64,000 nt of DNA from an uncultured Algibacter sp. (GTDB lineage: Bacteria > Bacteroidota > Bacteroidia > Flavobacteriales > Flavobacteriaceae): positions 103,410-167,409 of the forward strand of contig NZ_CANLGU010000006.1 of assembly GCF_947490405.1 (NCBI RefSeq), in the 5' to 3' direction. Of the stretch, positions 27,355 to 63,550 are shown piece by piece. Each line of letters starts with the position of its first letter. The first letter of the stretch is position 1. The notes under the pieces were generated by a model, which did not search any database, was not told the origin of the DNA, and saw only the letters and a list, made by a program, of their open reading frames with translations. Both the position numbers and the translations under genes were made by a program.

Positions 27355-29316
27355 ATGGAACACAACTCAACTTTTCCTATAAAATTAACTGAACTTGATA
27401 TGCTTCGCGATGAAGCTTCCTCATACCTTAAAAGTATACAATGGGAGCAAGGATCTCGTGCAAAAAACAGAGATAAAGATGCCAAAGATGAATCGATATT
27501 ACTGTACTTGTCAAGAGCAAATAATGGCAGTTCTGTTAGTGTAACTTCGGTTTCAAAAACCATTTTAGGTTTAAAAAAGAGGTTATTGCCAGATTCTGTA
27601 GCGCTTCCTATTTATTTGAATCAAACTTTATACGCGGTTCAGGAGGGTATTACACTAGGTATATGGATAAAAGATAGTTATTACGATGCGTCAGGATTAT
27701 CTAGTTTAAATGAAAATAAATCAGCTTTAGATAGTAACGGAAAACGAGAATTTGAAAGCAAAATGCTCACCGCCACGGCGTTTATGTTATTTGCTCAAGC
27801 CTATAAAATATTACACGATTTAAAACCGCATGCGTCAGATGATTTAAGTGTGATGAAACAGAAATTTGCTGGTATTCCTGAAGTGTCTTTAATGTCGCCT
27901 ATAAAAGGTATTTCCTGTAGTTTATTTTATTATGACAAGTATTTAGATCATCCAGAAATCATAAAGTCTGATAAAGATGTTATCGATTTCACGGTAGTGT
28001 ATTTCGAGGCTTTAATTGATGAAATTCAGTTACGAAAAAGTAGTTTAGAATACACTGAAACTATTGAAGATAGAACGTATAAGTTAGAAAAATCGGAGTT
28101 TGCAGTTTCGGGTTGGAATAATGTATTTCAAGGTACCGCAAAAAGTGTAGAATTTAATAAAATACAGTTTGAACAAATTGTAGGTAACCGAGATGCAAAG
28201 CATTTTGCACGACGTTTAACAGAGCGTATGTTAAGCTACGATTTTACGGCTAAGAAAAACCCGTTTCAAGAGTTAGGTGGTTTTATGCCTGTGTTTATGG
28301 GCTATGGCATTCCGGGAACAGGAAAAAGTATGTTAATTGCAGCCATTGCTACACGGTTAAAGGAGCATTGTGATACGTTGGATATTCCGTTTTTATTCCA
28401 CCCAATGCCAGATACCTTGATTTCCACTTTCCAAGGTGGTTCAGCTGAAAAAATGGTAGCGTGGATGAAACCTATGCAAGACCCTTCAAAATTAATTTTC
28501 GCACCTATTGATGATGCCGAAAATAATTTACAAGAACGAACTGCTCAAGGTGTTTCGGCTGGCGTGAAAGAAGTTATTGGTGTGTTTTTAAGATATACTG
28601 AAGGCGCTTATGCAGTTAACTATGGTAATAGTTCTATAGGTTTATTTACAAACTTGCCAGAAATGCTAGATAAAGCAGTTATTTCTCGTGTTCAAGGTCG
28701 TTTTAAAATTGATGGAGCAAGAACAGAACATGATTTCCTAGATCAAGATCATTTATGGTGGCGAAAATTAGATGACACCATGCCAGATTTTGTAAATATG
28801 CAAGGGCCAGAAAATTATAGTTATCTGCAAGATCAAGGGTTAGCAAAAAATATGGGAGATATTTTGAGTAATGTTGATAAACCTACTGAAGCTCGTGTTC
28901 ATAAGGTTTATGATAGTGTAGAAAAACATTTTAAAACCAATCAACATTTATTTTATGCAAACTTGTATAAAGAAATGCAAGCAGTATTTCCGTTCTTTTC
29001 ATCTCGTGATGTGCGTAATATTCAATCAGCTATTTCATTGCGATTAACCGATTTTGATTTGGAAGAAGATTGGTTCGAAAATCCAGAAATCTATTTTAAA
29101 CAAGATTATGATACTAAGTTTAATATGCTTCAAGAATTGATGCGAGGCAATATGAAAGGCTTAGATTTTTCTGAGATTAGAAGACAAGAAGTCGTGCGTT
29201 ATTTAGATAATGTAGCAACTATTGCTGATACTGATTTTAAACGAAAAGTAGATGCTAGAGTGAATCAGTTACATATTGAAACTGAAGCAAGAAAAACGTT
29301 TGGTAATGAAAAATAA
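27355..29316 (+). CDS. AAA-family ATPase with uncharacterised N-terminal domain
   Basis: Walker A GIPGTGKS, Walker B LIFAPIDD, second region of homology FTNLPEMLDKAVISR. Confidence 0.9.
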   Translation: MEHNSTFPIKLTELDMLRDEASSYLKSIQWEQGSRAKNRDKDAKDESILLYLSRANNGSSVSVTSVSKTILGLKKRLLPDSVALPIYLNQTLYAVQEGITLGIWIKDSYYDASGLSSLNENKSALDSNGKREFESKMLTATAFMLFAQAYKILHDLKPHASDDLSVMKQKFAGIPEVSLMSPIKGISCSLFYYDKYLDHPEIIKSDKDVIDFTVVYFEALIDEIQLRKSSLEYTETIEDRTYKLEKSEFAVSGWNNVFQGTAKSVEFNKIQFEQIVGNRDAKHFARRLTERMLSYDFTAKKNPFQELGGFMPVFMGYGIPGTGKSMLIAAIATRLKEHCDTLDIPFLFHPMPDTLISTFQGGSAEKMVAWMKPMQDPSKLIFAPIDDAENNLQERTAQGVSAGVKEVIGVFLRYTEGAYAVNYGNSSIGLFTNLPEMLDKAVISRVQGRFKIDGARTEHDFLDQDHLWWRKLDDTMPDFVNMQGPENYSYLQDQGLAKNMGDILSNVDKPTEARVHKVYDSVEKHFKTNQHLFYANLYKEMQAVFPFFSSRDVRNIQSAISLRLTDFDLEEDWFENPEIYFKQDYDTKFNMLQELMRGNMKGLDFSEIRRQEVVRYLDNVATIADTDFKRKVDARVNQLHIETEARKTFGNEK

Positions 29317-29890
29317 GCAGATTAAAAATATAAATAAGAAGCTGCTTTCAGACAACTATTATATTCTCAATAGAGTCAATTTTGATTATTTGATGCCTAA
29401 TGGCAAATGGGTAAACCAAATGCGTGAGGTTTATGATAGAGGAGATGGTGCAGGAATTCTTCTTTATAATAAGGAAAAACAAACTGTAATTTTAACAAAG
29501 CAATTTAGAATGCCAACCTATTTGAATGATAATAAAGATGGTATGTTGGTTGAAGTTGCCGCAGGCATGTTGGATAAAGATAACCCTGAAGCTTGTATAA
29601 TTAGAGAAACTGAAGAAGAAGTTGGATATCGTTTAAAATCAGTTAAAAAGATTTATGAAGCCTATTCTTCTCCTGGAGTGATGACTGAGAAAATGCATTT
29701 TTTTATTGGTGAATACACCGATGATATGAAAGTGAATGAAGGTGGTGGTTTAGATAATGAAGGTGAGGATATTGAGGTATTGGAAATTCCTTTTAAAGAA
29801 GCTATTAAAATGTTGAATAATGGAGAAATTGTAGATACAAGAACCATTGTATTGTTGCAGTATGCTATAATTCATAAGTTATTAGATTAA
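29306..29890 (+). CDS. nudK: GDP-mannose pyrophosphatase NudK/YffH-like Nudix hydrolase
   Basis: REVYDRGDGA, QFR, AGMLD...RETEEEVG Nudix box, SPG, GGG...EDIEVLE; overlaps the AAA gene end by 11 nt. Confidence 0.85.
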   Translation: MKNKQIKNINKKLLSDNYYILNRVNFDYLMPNGKWVNQMREVYDRGDGAGILLYNKEKQTVILTKQFRMPTYLNDNKDGMLVEVAAGMLDKDNPEACIIRETEEEVGYRLKSVKKIYEAYSSPGVMTEKMHFFIGEYTDDMKVNEGGGLDNEGEDIEVLEIPFKEAIKMLNNGEIVDTRTIVLLQYAIIHKLLD

Positions 29891-29891
29891 T

Positions 29892-31127
29892 ATGGACAAA
29901 CTAAAACAAGCCAAATTATATAGAAGTGAACTTATTCCCGTTAGCGGGAAACTTGTAGAGCGTTATAACAAATGCTTGGTTAAACTTGGTTTTACAGAAA
30001 CTAAGCTTAAGACTTTTCATATTGATGGTATGGGGTGGAGTCCGGAAATCGCTGAAGAAAAAGACGATAATAGTTATCTAAATAACGGAGAAGCAAATCC
30101 ACATGGCATTATAATTTCACCACTTCAAAAAGGGAAACCTGTGTATTTGCCGTTTCATACGTTTGATAGAGATATCATGAAATTTGTCTTTAAAATTCAT
30201 GGTGAAAAAATTAAAGATATCACAAGAGATTGTGCAATTTGTTTGGATTTCGATCAAGGCGTTGATGCGTTTTATGAGCCGCTGGATGTTTTGAAATATG
30301 ATAAGATAACCATCAACTTTCACTTGATTGATAGATTATGGTATATTCAAAAAGAGCAATTACAGCTTGTAGAAAGATTCAATACTGGTAATAATTTTAT
30401 AGATGAAAATTTACATCAAGAGCTTTTAGCTTTAGCAAAGGCTTATGGAGATTTACGTGAACGTGATTTGGACTTGCACCAATTACAATTTGCAACAGAT
30501 TCATTTTATACAAGAGCTTTTGGAGGTGTTTATGTATTACGAGATTTTATAAAACCCATAATCGTTTTTGAAGATGAAACTTGGCATAAAGAAGCTATAA
30601 AAGATACAAACCATGATGTGTTGATATATCATATTGAGCAGCCTGAGCTTATGGATAAACTCAGAGACCATGTTATTATTGAGTATGATTTAGAAAAAGT
30701 AGTTGAAACCAAACGCTATCAGCGTATCAAGAAATTTGAAATGGTTCAGCATCTTAAAAAGTCTCAACATCCAATAAAAGATATTTTAAATGACCCAATT
30801 TTGTTTAAAAGTTATTTAAATAAACTAGATATTAAAGCTAGAAAAAAAGTTATGAGTGTTGAGCGCTATCTAGAAAAATTAGAAACGAGCAATCAATTTA
30901 AAATAGCTGATATTGTTGATGAAAAACTTTTTGAGGCCTTACATCAACCGCATTCTTCATTAGATGCTAAACATCAAGATCTAATCTGGAAGTTACTCGT
31001 TAATATTTCAGAAAAAGACGTTTTATATTGGTATTGGTATGATAAAGAAGCGTTTTATAACAGTTTTAAAACTTGGGATGATTCGTTTAAGGAATGGGCA
31101 ATAGAAACGATTAGTAACAATATTTAA
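29892..31127 (+). CDS. DUF6638-like hypothetical protein
   Basis: LVERYN, FHIDGMGWSPEIA, FYTRAFGGVY motifs recalled from DUF6638; not database-verified. Confidence 0.7.
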   Translation: MDKLKQAKLYRSELIPVSGKLVERYNKCLVKLGFTETKLKTFHIDGMGWSPEIAEEKDDNSYLNNGEANPHGIIISPLQKGKPVYLPFHTFDRDIMKFVFKIHGEKIKDITRDCAICLDFDQGVDAFYEPLDVLKYDKITINFHLIDRLWYIQKEQLQLVERFNTGNNFIDENLHQELLALAKAYGDLRERDLDLHQLQFATDSFYTRAFGGVYVLRDFIKPIIVFEDETWHKEAIKDTNHDVLIYHIEQPELMDKLRDHVIIEYDLEKVVETKRYQRIKKFEMVQHLKKSQHPIKDILNDPILFKSYLNKLDIKARKKVMSVERYLEKLETSNQFKIADIVDEKLFEALHQPHSSLDAKHQDLIWKLLVNISEKDVLYWYWYDKEAFYNSFKTWDDSFKEWAIETISNNI

Positions 31128-31158
31128 TGATTATTGACTAATTTTATTGAAACGTTTT

Positions 31159-31523
31159 GTCATTCCGCACTTGATGCGGAATCCAAATAAAGCATGATAG
31201 GGAATTATCATCAATACTATGTCTATATTTTATCAAATATGGAAAACGGAACTTTATATATTGGTGTAAAAAATGATTTGGAAAGACGAATGTTTGAGCA
31301 TAAACGTAAAATGGCAGCAGGTTTTACCTCAAAATATGGTTTGGGTAAATTGATGTATTTTGAACAATTTCAATATATTGATGATGCTATTAAGAGAGAA
31401 AAACAGTTAAAGAACTGGAATCGAGAATGGAAAATAGATTTAATTGAAGAAGAGAATAAGAATTGGAATGATTTGTCTTCGGATTGGATATATTAATGGA
31501 TTCCGCATCAAGTGCGGAATGAC
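31159..31523 (+). mobile_element. GIY-YIG gene cassette bounded by 26-bp perfect inverted REP hairpins
   Basis: GTCATTCCGCACTTGATGCGGAATCC (31159-31184) and its exact reverse complement (31498-31523) enclose the gene. Confidence 0.8.
31194..31496 (+). CDS. GIY-YIG nuclease family protein
   Basis: YVYIL...LYIG...LERR...H...REKQLKNW. Confidence 0.92.
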   Translation: MIGNYHQYYVYILSNMENGTLYIGVKNDLERRMFEHKRKMAAGFTSKYGLGKLMYFEQFQYIDDAIKREKQLKNWNREWKIDLIEEENKNWNDLSSDWIY

Positions 31524-31541
31524 AAGTAATACATAAAAATT

Positions 31542-32057
31542 ATGACACTAGAACTCATTGTATTTATTGGCGCTATACTTTTTGGAATCTTTTTATATTG
31601 GAGAGAATCCAAAGGAAACGGACTTTATAGGTTTTTTAATAAAATTATAAATTCGAAAGAACTTCAAATGAAACCTGAAGACAAAACAGGTTTTGTATAT
31701 CAGCAAACATTTTTATTACGATTGGTTTTTATTGGGTTTCTGTTTTTAATCGGAATAGTAGTAACACGTTTTTTAATTCCTATTGATATTGCGACTATAT
31801 CCATTTTTGCTTCTATGATTGTTGGAACGATAGCTGGAACTTATTTAGCAAATTTTATTTTTAAATCTAGTGAGGTCATCGAAGAAAAAAGCGACTCCAT
31901 TGAAGATATGGTTCAAGATACTATTGAAAAGGGAAAAGACTTTATAGAAGACTTAAAAACGAAAGATGCAGAAGAAGTTGTTGAAGAAATTAATGAAAAA
32001 CCAAAAGTAGAGGAAAAGAGTGCAAGAGAGCGCTTGAAGGATAAAGGGTTGTTGTAA
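31542..32057 (+). CDS. Hypothetical membrane protein (3 TM, acidic C-tail)
   Basis: Hydrophobic segments and an E/D/K-rich C-terminus. Confidence 0.78.
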   Translation: MTLELIVFIGAILFGIFLYWRESKGNGLYRFFNKIINSKELQMKPEDKTGFVYQQTFLLRLVFIGFLFLIGIVVTRFLIPIDIATISIFASMIVGTIAGTYLANFIFKSSEVIEEKSDSIEDMVQDTIEKGKDFIEDLKTKDAEEVVEEINEKPKVEEKSARERLKDKGLL

Positions 32058-32059
32058 CT

Positions 32060-32133
32060 GTCACTCCTGTGAAAGCAGGAATCCATTAAATATTTAAGTT
32101 AAACTAATAAAATTCCTGCTTTTCAGGAATGAC
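32060..32133. repeat. REP family B inverted doublet (REPIN-like)
   Basis: GTCACTCCTGTGAAAGCAGGAATCC (32060-32084) facing AATTCCTGCTTTTCAGGAATGAC (32111-32133). Confidence 0.8.
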
Positions 32134-32140
32134 AAAAATT

Positions 32141-33838
32141 ATGATAAAAACATACTGGAATAAAGGAAAGAAGCAAAAAGCAATAACTATTATCGTTTCA
32201 TTCATTCTACTTATAGCATTATTTGTTTTACGTGATGATTATCAACCAGCGTTGTTATTTGTAAGAAAATTTATTTTCATAATCTTACTAAGTAGTATTG
32301 TATTATTTTTAGGTTTAAGAAAATTCAGAAAGTCGGCAAGCACAGGAGGTCGATTAGGGATTTTAGCATTATTAGTGATATTCTTTGGGATTTTATATGT
32401 AGTTGGTTGGCATTTTAAAATGTATGATTACATGAAAACGTACAATGTGTTTAACCATCTAAACAAAGTTGAAATTGGTGAATTACCTTTAACTCAAAAT
32501 GAACGTATTCAGCCTTTAAGAAACGTTTTTTCTATGGCCAATGAAAGTGTAGGTGAGACTAAAGATGTATCATTACCACACTTAGTTAGGATAGGTGACG
32601 AGAATAAATGGACTATGGCCATTCAACCAACAGAAAAGTATATGTGGCAAGGTATGACTGATAATACAGAAGAAGTTTTTGCTGTATCAAGTACAACGCC
32701 TTTTCCAAGGTTTTCAAGCGAAAATAGAATTCCTGTGACGTTTTCAATTGGTGAATCCTTAAAATTTAGTAGAAACACTTATAATGCTGTAGTACAGCGT
32801 TTCAATTTTTTCCAACTATTCACAATGGAACCAAGTGACACGTATTATATGAAAAACGATTCAGGACAATGGGTTCAAGTAGTGAGTTTAATAAAATGGA
32901 AAGGTTTTTTATTTCCATACCCAACCTTTGGAGGTGTTATGGTTATTGATAATGGTGAACATGATTTTAATGATTATATAGAGCGTATCTTAATAGGAAA
33001 AGGAACTTATGTTAGTCCTGAGAATATGAAAAACCATAAGTATTTAACAAGACAAAATACTTTAGCTGAAAAAGTATCAAGATTACAAGCAGAGTCCTTA
33101 AAATTCTTAGGTGGGTTTAGTGATCCATTACCTTGGAACATGGAAACTGCTGTGAAAATCCCTGAAATGCCAAAAGACCAGAATCAACAACCTTATGTTA
33201 CAGATTTTGATTTTTCAGGTACAGAAACAGGTGCTTTTAGTGGCTTATACCACTGGTTTGGTTTAGAGCCGGTAGGAGACGAACGTACTAGTTTAAGCTT
33301 TAGTGTTTTTGTTCCTGCTGATGGTACTGATAAATTATATTATTATAATCATGCTGCTAAAAAACAAGGGTATGCTGGTGTTTCGGCAATGCCTTTAAAA
33401 GTAAAAGAATCGAGAAAAGAATATGATTGGACAGCCAATACACCAGTTGAATTTAGACCATACATAAAGGATATTGCAGGCAAAAAGCGTATGTTTTTTA
33501 TGGGAACCGTATCTTCAATAAGTGATACCGATTCAAAACAATTTGATGGTTCTGCAACACCAGACTTAGTACTTATTGATAGTGAATATAGAGATGTGGT
33601 TTGGATTGATGTGAAACACCCAAGCCAATGGAATAAAACTGTTTATGACCAGTTAAATGAAGCATGGCGTTCTAGTGAAAAGATTGGTTATTATTTTGTT
33701 GAAGAAACTAAAGAAATTGATATTGCTCAAAAAGTTGTTGATTCAATAAACGCAATGCCACAAGTAGATAAGAAATCTGAAGAAATTGAGAGATTACAGA
33801 AGCAAATTGATTCTTTGAAGGCTTTGAATAATCAGTGA
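32141..33838 (+). CDS. Hypothetical membrane-anchored protein with large extracytoplasmic beta-rich domain
   Basis: Three N-terminal TMs, long soluble domain, C-terminal short coiled coil. The ATG at 32129 lies inside the REP, so 32141 is preferred. Confidence 0.8.
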   Translation: MIKTYWNKGKKQKAITIIVSFILLIALFVLRDDYQPALLFVRKFIFIILLSSIVLFLGLRKFRKSASTGGRLGILALLVIFFGILYVVGWHFKMYDYMKTYNVFNHLNKVEIGELPLTQNERIQPLRNVFSMANESVGETKDVSLPHLVRIGDENKWTMAIQPTEKYMWQGMTDNTEEVFAVSSTTPFPRFSSENRIPVTFSIGESLKFSRNTYNAVVQRFNFFQLFTMEPSDTYYMKNDSGQWVQVVSLIKWKGFLFPYPTFGGVMVIDNGEHDFNDYIERILIGKGTYVSPENMKNHKYLTRQNTLAEKVSRLQAESLKFLGGFSDPLPWNMETAVKIPEMPKDQNQQPYVTDFDFSGTETGAFSGLYHWFGLEPVGDERTSLSFSVFVPADGTDKLYYYNHAAKKQGYAGVSAMPLKVKESRKEYDWTANTPVEFRPYIKDIAGKKRMFFMGTVSSISDTDSKQFDGSATPDLVLIDSEYRDVVWIDVKHPSQWNKTVYDQLNEAWRSSEKIGYYFVEETKEIDIAQKVVDSINAMPQVDKKSEEIERLQKQIDSLKALNNQ

Positions 33839-59725: not shown

Positions 59726-59762
59726 TTTTTATTTCCATACAAGTTAGAATTATTTCAAATGA

Positions 59763-59785
59763 GATTCCCGCCTTCGCGGAATGAC
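59763..59785 (-). repeat. REP family B copy
   Basis: Reverse complement GTCATTCCGCGAAGGCGGGAATC. Confidence 0.75.
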
Positions 59786-59872
59786 AAAAAAATTTATTGA
59801 AACGAAAAACCCCACGATGATGCTTTGAGGCATACATTTCGTAGGGCTTTCCAAACTAACCAACCAAAATTT

Positions 59873-63423: not shown

Positions 63424-63466
63424 TACCTAGTAGATTAATTTTTAGCAATAAATTTTGTTGATTACC

Positions 63467-63550
63467 GCGTTAGGGATTGCAGAGGAAATCCTTTTTGTGA
63501 GGCACGAGCAAAAAGATTGAAACGTAAAGCCCGACCCTTGGGGAACGCCC
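63467..63550 (+). repeat. Dispersed repeat family A, copy 4
   Basis: GCGTTAGGGATTGCAG...ATCCTTTTTG...CAAAAAGATTG...AAAGCCCGACCCTTGGGGAACGCCC. Confidence 0.85.

Follow-up and report, generated by a model that had tools for sequence, protein, structure and literature searches.

The window analyzed here (the whole 64,000-nt stretch C6:103410-167409 of a 3.69-Mb draft Algibacter genome of 32% GC) was found to carry a 365-bp unit that is very probably an ssnA-type cassette, that is, a gene for an Ssn-family single-stranded DNA (ssDNA) endonuclease set between two inverted NTS-like hairpins that would serve as its Ssn-related motif (SRM). This assignment draws on the anatomy, homology, conservation, presence/absence, and co-occurrence patterns observed here. 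The unit, which runs from the GTCA at 31159 through the TGAC at 31523, is bounded by arms at 31157..31185 (+ strand) and 31497..31525 (- strand) that form an inverted repeat of 29 nt with 100% complementarity and 311 nt between the copies. The left arm, TTGTC-ATTCCGCA-CTTGA-TGCGGAAT-CCA, is an SRM/NTS-like, 'TGTC-tagged' REP hairpin; the right arm is the same hairpin and begins right after the stop codon of the gene, and in both arms the tag faces away from the gene. When each arm was folded as ssDNA, an 8-bp stem (ATTCCGCA/TGCGGAAT) with a 5-nt loop (CTTGA) was obtained, at -9.8 kcal/mol (z -4.0) for the left arm and -8.9 kcal/mol (z -5.1) for the right, and a covariance model of the hairpin family matched both arms, at 31155-31188 (+; 37.3 bits, E 1.1e-5) and 31494-31527 (-; 35.3 bits). 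The enclosed ssnA-like gene (31194..31496, + strand) encodes a predicted 100-aa single-domain GIY-YIG nuclease (Pfam PF01541, E 3.8e-15). Its open reading frame (ORF) starts 8 nt past the left arm and ends abutting the right arm, and no further ORF of at least 40 aa was present within the 365-bp unit. An earlier reading of the window from its letters alone (hereafter the sequence-only reading) had described a 100-aa GIY-YIG gene tightly enclosed by hairpin inverted repeats, which was confirmed by the ORF, Pfam, repeat, and folding analyses; its '26-bp exact inverted repeats' proved exact as stated, with the length corrected to 29 nt. The slot of the cassette follows the stop codon of a DUF6638 gene and precedes the ATG that starts a gene for a 171-aa membrane protein; the cassette is single-copy in its own genome, where the nearest paralog (C3:245486) is 73% identical.

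The Pfam GIY-YIG domain spans residues 7-81 of the 100-aa protein and was its only above-threshold Pfam match; T5orf172 was the sole other match, sub-threshold and over the same residues, and no match to Y1_Tnp (HUH/Y1 tyrosine transposase) was detected in Pfam. The catalytic positions Y11, Y22, G24, R32, H36, E69, and N88 were all present, in columns that are at least 93% conserved, and the protein deviated at 2 of 55 strongly conserved columns, which equals the family median. The K of YIGVKND, which the sequence-only reading had singled out as worth noting, was found to be unusual: at this position (residue 26), K occurred in the window protein only (1 of the 120 nearest clusters), while T was present in 111 of the 120, in 44 of 58 proteins from NTS cassettes, and in every paralog. 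Searches of the PDB returned UPF0213 relatives only (1zg2 and 1ywl, at only 34-39 bits and ~29% identity), a search of NCBIfam yielded no model specific to the window protein, and the match to TIGR01453 (group I intron endonuclease) was weak (E 2.2e-5, 24.6 bits, with a cut-off of 56). An NTS-flanked homolog from Neisseria viridiae was 48-50% identical to the window protein (E 1.7e-28, 100 bits), a far closer match than the UPF0213 structures. Three homologs were found in the N. viridiae genome, with an exact NTS following one of them; the genome of N. polysaccharea ATCC 43768 was also searched and contained no homolog of the window protein.

The system that this unit resembles was described by Chenal et al. 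(2025, Nat Commun; PMC11893778), who defined the NTS as CGTCATTCCCGCGMAVGCGGGAATCYRG and reported that GIY-YIG nucleases of the Ssn family cut ssDNA adjacent to NTS/SRM hairpins (CGTCATTCCCGCG..GCGGGAATC). SsnA of Neisseria meningitidis, a 94-aa GIY-YIG protein (cd10448), binds the NTS hairpin and cuts 5' of the NTS, in ssDNA only and on that strand only; binding needs the C after the palindrome, cleavage needs three nucleotides before the palindrome, and the characterized Ssn enzymes do not cut double-stranded DNA (dsDNA) or RNA (PMC11893778). Across phyla, an SRM was reported near 71% of Ssn homologs and on both sides of 42%, the NTS-ssnA-NTS layout was likened to an insertion sequence (IS) and to RAYT/REP, and a policing of ssDNA was proposed for Neisseria transformation (PMC11893778). 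Thus, the pairing of gene and hairpin, the IS-like architecture, and the RAYT/REP analogy are already published together with the biochemistry of ssDNA cutting (PMC11893778), and 'SsnA-associated NTS repeats' already serve as a benchmark repeat class in a 2026 preprint. The window unit shares with this system (i) a gene for a single-domain GIY-YIG protein of ~95-100 aa bracketed by inverted, GTC-tagged ATTCC...GGAAT hairpins that are followed by C; and (ii) the dispersal of the same hairpins in intergenic DNA. The size and domain content of an Ssn protein (single-domain GIY-YIG, about 94-100 aa, no extra DNA-binding domain) were found in the window protein, both arms have the GTC tag 5' of the palindrome and the C after it, as do those of the orthologs, and homology to Neisseria SsnA, for which Chenal et al. 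used tblastn E < 1e-10, was found by proxy at E 1.7e-28, with the N. viridiae homolog standing for N. meningitidis SsnA. The differences are that hairpin copies number about 55 here versus hundreds, and that seven hairpin-flanked paralogs reside in this one genome; Bacteroidota and Flavobacteria go unmentioned in the main text of Chenal et al. (PMC11893778).

A scan for canonical arms in the form GTCATTCCCGC-N320-350-GCGGGAATGAC identified more than 120 cassettes (L028-L147) in many phyla, including Proteobacteria, Dehalococcoidia, Planctomycetota, Saccharibacteria, Parcubacteria, Cyanobacteria, Nitrospirota, and Rikenellaceae. Of the ORFs in these canonical cassettes, more than 40 shared 45-60% identity with the window protein (E 1e-24 to 1e-38), and the two Neisseria loci recovered by the scan were both NTS pairs without a gene. 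The occurrence of identical arm cores in groups this distant implies that the hairpin is under extreme constraint or has spread widely by horizontal transfer. In a metagenome-assembled contig labelled 'uncultured actinobacterium' (L163:1729-1850, CAJVYJ010000104.1), AATGATACGGCGACCACCG.GATCTACACTCTTTCCCTACG.G.CGCTCTTCCGATCT was observed right downstream of a GIY-YIG match. This downstream sequence resembles an Illumina adapter; an assembly artefact at the contig end is therefore probable, and the taxonomic label is doubtful.

Hairpins related to the two arms were found across the genome. The pattern GTCAYTCC-N10-30-GGAATC gave 3 matches in the window versus 0.00 in shuffles and 50 genome-wide versus 3.7 in shuffles. 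Filtering of tagged hairpins by stem composition left about 54 copies with the consensus (T/C)TGTC-ATTCC-NNN-loop-NNN-GGAAT-C(C/T)A and a conserved T-rich 5' flank (TTTT/TTCT ahead of GTCA), and the covariance model, which was built on 41 genomic copies, found 55 in the genome and five in the window. A generic scan for GTCA plus any hairpin was dropped as too loose (633 matches vs 344-1035 for control tetramers), and Rfam had no family for the hairpin, returning only sub-threshold chance matches within 31000-32300. By stem/loop subfamily, the copies include 7 of GCA-CTTGA-TGC, among them the pair that flanks the window gene, about 19 of TGC-GAAG-GCA, 4 of TGC-GCAG-GCA, among them the pair around the 73%-identical paralog at C3:245486, and about 8 of the CGC/CGT types. 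ORFs of 100 codons or more cover 87% of the genome, yet 49 of the 54 hairpins were intergenic, often only 4-20 nt from ORF ends, and their strand relative to the neighboring genes was unbiased (9 vs 11). Seven gene-less inverted doublets were detected in the genome, all with tags outward and a span of 76-81 nt and often combining different subfamilies. One of these is the REPIN-like doublet of the window at 32056..32137 (hits 32056-32088(+) and 32106-32137(-), separated by an AT-rich spacer), which folds as a single long hairpin (-17.3 kcal/mol, z -5.4). A solo family hairpin, TTTGTCATTCCGCGAAGGCGGGAATC, lies at 59758..59789 on the - strand (covariance model 35.7 bits, E 2.5e-5); its stem is imperfect and its fold weak (z -0.4). 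Thus, of the five sites at which related hairpins had been proposed, the doublet (32060/32111) and 59763 were borne out by the covariance model, and 15736 and 25502 were not, with no match at E<=1 in the window. The former of these two reads CTATTTCCTGCG..AGGAATC and the latter TGTTATTCCCGC plus a 29-nt loop plus GCGGGAATC, neither with a GTCA tag, and they would be decayed look-alikes at best. The right hairpin of the doublet was also observed to end in ...GGAATGACA (window 32126-32134), such that its tag ATGACA contains the called ATG (32129) of a 569-aa ORF, the next one along. A second in-frame ATG occurs at 32141, and the start codon may have come from the repeat or have been displaced by it.

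The hairpins also correspond to the superfamily of CGTC/TGTC-tagged REPs described by Di Nocera, De Gregorio and Rocco (2013, BMC Genomics 14:522; PMC3733652), which is present in Bacteroidetes and is characterized by 8-9-bp stems starting with AT, 4-5-nt loops, and a CCA tail, with the Neisseria members corresponding to dRS3 repeats. All features of these repeats were found here, including the unpaired tag, the 8-bp AT-starting stem, the loop, the CCA tail, the intergenic location, and the inverted dimers. Di Nocera et al. found no dedicated enzyme for these repeats (PMC3733652); the difference here, as in Chenal et al., is that a GIY-YIG gene sits between two of them.

The relationship between gene and hairpin was examined within the genome and across relatives. 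Eight small GIY-YIG paralogs were found in the genome, and seven of these had GTCA-tagged hairpins, of several classes, no more than 160 nt away. The eighth (C5:188405) had no flanking tagged hairpins and was UPF0213-like, scoring 59.7 bits to the UPF0213 protein BH0048 versus 45 bits to the window protein. Proteins of this UPF0213/YhbQ-like group (1zg2, 1ywl) share the fold and size of the window protein and differ from it in sequence (identity of only about 29%) and, judging by the paralog in this genome, in having no tagged hairpins. Other classes of tagged hairpin (GTCATTGCGAGGCACGAAGCAATC, GTCATTCCGAGGACGAAGGACGAAGGAATC, GTCATTTCGACGTCAGGAGAAATC, and a long GTCATTCTGAGC...GAGAATC form) were observed to flank the ssn paralogs at C1:613575-613859, C8:1714-1989, and C3:206718-207002, in some cases with composite repeats in direct orientation to either side of the gene. 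These arrangements suggest that several nuclease-hairpin pairs may co-reside in the genome. Among 41 genomes (this genome and 40 relatives, a sample in which phylogeny confounds the statistics), the number of hairpins detected by the model ranged from 0 to 71 and was correlated with the number of homologs of the window protein (Spearman 0.74 overall and 0.71 in the genus), and presence/absence of the two was likewise associated (Fisher p = 5.6e-5). The gene-hairpin link proposed from the window alone was therefore upheld by the flanked paralogs (7 of 8), by the flavobacterial orthologs described below, and by the counts across the 41 genomes, which together support a link that is real and specific.

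Orthologs of the cassette were found in the same slot in Algibacter (G004/L153, G008/L154, and L152), in an uncultured member of the Flavobacteriaceae (L151), in Gelatiniphilus, and in two Psychroserpens genomes, and at other loci in Hyunsoonleella, Flavivirga, and Flagellimonas. The flavobacterial orthologs bear flanking hairpins like those of the window gene; homologs without such repeats would have counted against the proposed association. The DNA identity of the ORF to G004 and G008 (81.5-84.5%) was indistinguishable from that of the flanking genes (81-87%), dS was 0.8-1.5 when the window copy was paired with the Algibacter orthologs and was saturated in more distant pairs, and pairwise dN/dS was 0.04-0.12 (0.06-0.12 for the pairs that include the window copy). 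Despite this divergence, both 29-nt arms were identical (58/58 nt) in the window genome, G004, G008, and L152. By our own estimate, 58 unchanged bases at about 16% divergence have a probability of 0.84^58, or about 4e-5 per genome pair, and the arms must therefore be constrained or homogenised. The perfect arms would thus reflect constraint or homogenisation and give no indication of recency, and both the protein and the arm sequences appear to be under purifying selection in this lineage. The suggestion that the perfect repeats point to recent activity was not sustained, as the ORF is as diverged as its flanks, dS reaches 0.8-1.5, the arms are identical at 29/29 nt, and the cassette is single-copy; comparison of the sequences instead points to a cassette that has long resided in one intergenic slot and has been passed on mostly by vertical inheritance. 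In L151, the closest ortholog (90% identity), the right arm is of another subfamily (TGCG-CTACGA-CGCA), and mixed arm types were also found in L155, L158, L159, and L160. The elements constant across arms were TGTCATYC on the 5' side and GRAATCY on the 3' side, positions that are those found critical by Chenal et al. (PMC11893778). A strict one-to-one covariation of protein and hairpin stem-loop was rejected, since orthologs have arms of different subfamilies.

The states of the cassette slot were compared in 15 relatives. The empty sites that the sequence-only reading had anticipated in relatives were present in six congeners (G010, G015, G011, G009, G007, and G003) as a clean spacer of 38-43 nt, and G004 and G008 have the intact cassette. 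In G023 the slot was occupied by a decayed copy with six stop codons, in G022 by one hairpin at the position of the left arm, and in G014 by a 128-nt unrelated spacer. A different one-gene element of about 480 bp, with a gene for a 118-aa PF05635 23S_rRNA_IVP protein (E 3e-29) and ~30-nt inverted repeats rich in GAAGT, was found in the slot of G013 (L016), G012 (L019), and G005 (L022), and a 176-nt MITE-like internal-deletion version of this element in G002 (L021). The slot (window 31131-31541) has the look of a landing pad for elements that consist of one gene between inverted repeats. The flanks of the occupied site (27 + 17 nt) add up to the empty 43-nt site, and thus there is no sizeable target duplication. 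Similar variation was detected at the doublet slot (window 32058-32128), where the doublet was unchanged in G013 and of another subfamily in G004, a small ORF of about 60 aa took its place in G009, G023, and G007, and G022 had nothing. In G010 (L175), this slot has one 'collapsed' palindrome, CTGTCATTCCG-TTTTTT-GCGGAATGA, with a tag on either side; recombination between the inverted hairpins of a doublet via their shared half-stems would be expected to yield such a product. Thus, from one related species to another, the cassette, the doublets, and the solo hairpins behave as discrete units that are acquired, lost, exchanged, or collapsed. The identity of G013 to the window was 99% in the left flank and 91% in the right, which makes homologous slot replacement a live alternative to transposition.

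By analogy with the Neisseria and Wolbachia enzymes, from which the cleavage chemistry and site are inferred for the window protein, the protein would bind the hairpin when the DNA is single-stranded and would probably read the unpaired (T)GTC tag on its 5' side and the C just past the palindrome. The strand would then be nicked a few nucleotides 5' of the tag, with dsDNA, RNA, and the complementary strand spared. The predicted target sites in this genome have the form YTGTCATTCC...GGAATCYA, and the other ~55 genomic hairpins, whether solo or in tags-outward doublets and almost all intergenic, would be further sites of the same kind. With its tags outward, the unit would receive one nick per strand, just outside the unit at the 5' end of that strand, whereas in the N. 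viridiae orientation the nicks would fall between hairpin and gene. The role of such cutting could be the policing of ssDNA that enters or arises in the cell, or the spreading of the repeats.

Several observations weigh against the assignment as an ssnA-type cassette or limit how far the published mechanism can be carried over to it. The published degenerate SRM string, HGTCWYN(0-2)YYVSBRHN(0-5)WNVSBRGN(0-2)RNCYNB (an operational search pattern and not a biological definition), matched 3 sites in the genome versus 3-4 in shuffles and matched neither arm; the C-run of the stem here falls one base short of what the string allows. Membership of the hairpins therefore rests on overall likeness, and they appear to be a variant just outside the published search pattern. 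The tags face away from the gene in 10 of 10 Flavobacteriaceae cassettes and toward the gene in N. viridiae (L148-L150), where the layout is ..GGGAATGACG - gene - CGTCATTCCC.., and models of the cut position may therefore not transfer; an inward tag upstream of the gene was also observed at the gammaproteobacterial locus L164. In addition, G010 has 24 hairpins and no close homolog, and G023 has 41 hairpins and pseudogenes only; since both keep hairpins without an intact close ssn gene, hairpins outlive the enzyme. Last, the T26K replacement, at a position occupied by T in 111 of the 120 nearest clusters, could mean that the window copy is altered in activity.

The alternative that the unit is an active, autonomous minimal transposon, with the GIY-YIG protein as a transposase that also mobilises doublets and solo hairpins in trans, was considered unlikely. 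The alleles at orthologous slots (filled, empty, solo-hairpin, and collapsed) and the summation of the 27- and 17-nt flanks to a 43-nt empty site are consistent with a unit that comes and goes cleanly, though the same presence/absence pattern is also explicable by homologous slot replacement, as G013 with its different element illustrates. Mobility is likewise favored by the differing positions of the orthologs in Hyunsoonleella, Flavivirga, and Flagellimonas, by the presence of seven paralogs with flanking hairpins in a single genome, and by the near-identical arms around homologs in many phyla; set against these are the absence of a second cassette copy from the genome, where the closest paralog is 73% identical, and the equal divergence of ORF and flanks in the same slot across genera, which speaks for long vertical residence. 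The gene-less doublets share the tags-outward layout at a fixed span of 76-81 nt, and the T-rich 5' flank (TTTT/TTCT before GTCA) could be a target or cleavage signal. Inverted arms, however, give one cleavable site per strand, and IS200/IS605-style single-strand excision, which needs two, therefore does not follow from the anatomy; moreover, G010 and G023 have kept hairpins although neither has an intact close ssn gene. We also know of no joining activity for GIY-YIG enzymes, which counts against a transposase. A broader proposal is that Ssn nucleases move the cassette, the tags-outward doublets, and the solo hairpins, making them a second, GIY-YIG-based counterpart of REPIN/RAYT. We regard this as a tentative idea, somewhat less improbable than the autonomous transposon. 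The parallel with RAYT-REP/REPIN systems drawn by the sequence-only reading is apt in its architecture and is the same analogy made by Chenal et al. (PMC11893778): as in the REPtron, a mostly vertically inherited gene sits between inverted copies of the repeat on which its product supposedly acts, gene-less inverted doublets are scattered in intergenic DNA, and the ssDNA hairpin is the recognised form (PMC3116915, PMC3337134). The systems differ in that the enzyme is a GIY-YIG protein here and a HUH/Y1 tyrosine transposase of the IS200/IS605 type in the REPtron, in that the tag is (C/T)GTC here and GTAG there, and in that no strand-transfer chemistry is known for the enzyme here; mobilisation is hypothetical. 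If Ssn-moved units were the case, Algibacter and its allies would provide a natural allelic series of filled, empty, solo, collapsed, and replaced slots, and up to seven co-resident nuclease-hairpin pairs, possibly of orthogonal specificities, for work on the mechanism.

Returning to the ssnA-type cassette, it is improbable that the window copy is one impaired or shifted in specificity by T26K (and K17E) and decaying like the copy in G023. K26 is unique to the window protein at a position otherwise occupied by T in 111 of 120 clusters, 44 of 58 NTS-cassette proteins, and all paralogs, and an ortholog with six stop codons does exist; yet the frame is intact, the canonical catalytic positions are all present, the deviation at 2 of 55 conserved columns is the family median, dN/dS is 0.06-0.12 in pairs with the window copy, and both arms are perfect. 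It is highly improbable that the hairpins serve as ordinary terminators of transcription or as regulatory stem-loops and have no functional tie to the nuclease. They are intergenic and often 4-20 nt from ORF ends, and one arm of the doublet scores as terminator-like, but no T-run follows either arm of the cassette, and the conserved unpaired tag and tail are not features of terminators. The absence of an orientation bias relative to transcription (9 vs 11), the flanking of homologs across phyla by the same tagged hairpins, and the hairpin counts that follow ssn counts are also contrary to this interpretation, as is the finding that published enzymes bind and cut the hairpins as ssDNA and not as RNA (PMC11893778). 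The terminator interpretation was rejected after a terminator scan found none at the arms. Least probable of all, to the point of being nearly discounted, is that the unit is a free-standing gene for a GIY-YIG homing endonuclease directed at the slot as dsDNA. The GIY-YIG domain, the weak TIGR01453 match (E 2.2e-5, below the cut-off), and slot alleles that are occupied or empty would fit such a gene; however, GIY-YIG homing endonucleases combine the nuclease with a DNA-binding domain and occur in an intron, intein, or phage context, whereas the window gene encodes a single-domain protein of only 100 aa with no DNA-binding extension, lies in a chromosomal intergenic slot with no such context, and forms a cassette defined by repeats that are also present about 55 times elsewhere. 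Its characterized relatives, moreover, do not cut dsDNA (PMC11893778).

Two further features of the surroundings were observed. Upstream of the cassette, a co-oriented, tightly packed cluster (window 27355-31127) encodes AAA-type ATPase-like (653-aa), Nudix-like (204-aa), and DUF6638 (411-aa) ORFs; the cassette is an insertion between the last gene of this cluster (DUF6638) and the next gene and is not a member of the cluster. The Flavo-1 RNA motif (RF01705) had 67 matches in the genome, 44 of them over the cut-off, including window matches at 1678-1828 and 63459-63540. Many of the matches were 140-160 nt instead of about 76 nt long, with an insert in the apical loop (e.g., C4:107452-107606, C8:11177-11325, C3:203123-203267, and C5:193868-194008) that ends with a reverse-oriented tagged hairpin, ...GGAATGACAAAAA or ...GCAATGACGT, whose tag directly adjoins the A/T-run of the Flavo-1 stem. 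Of the family hairpins, two fall within Flavo-1 matches and another three no more than 60 nt away, a modest enrichment by rough estimate (about 5 observed vs about 2 expected).

Overall, the cassette is a new flavobacterial example of a known system and not a new kind of element, and it opens no new field, since the system already has a name, a biochemistry, and a proposed evolutionary story. What it extends is the range of that system, with clear Ssn/hairpin cassettes now placed in marine Flavobacteriaceae and with hairpins that the published SRM search string under-detects. It also indicates that perfect arms can be kept by selection over long periods, and the perfection of arms is therefore no clock for mobility. 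The orthologous filled and empty sites and the multi-paralog genomes may be used to ask whether the nuclease spreads CGTC-tagged repeats or only acts on them, a question that stems from both Di Nocera et al. (PMC3733652) and Chenal et al. (PMC11893778), and the co-resident nuclease-hairpin pairs are candidate orthogonal reagents for cutting ssDNA.

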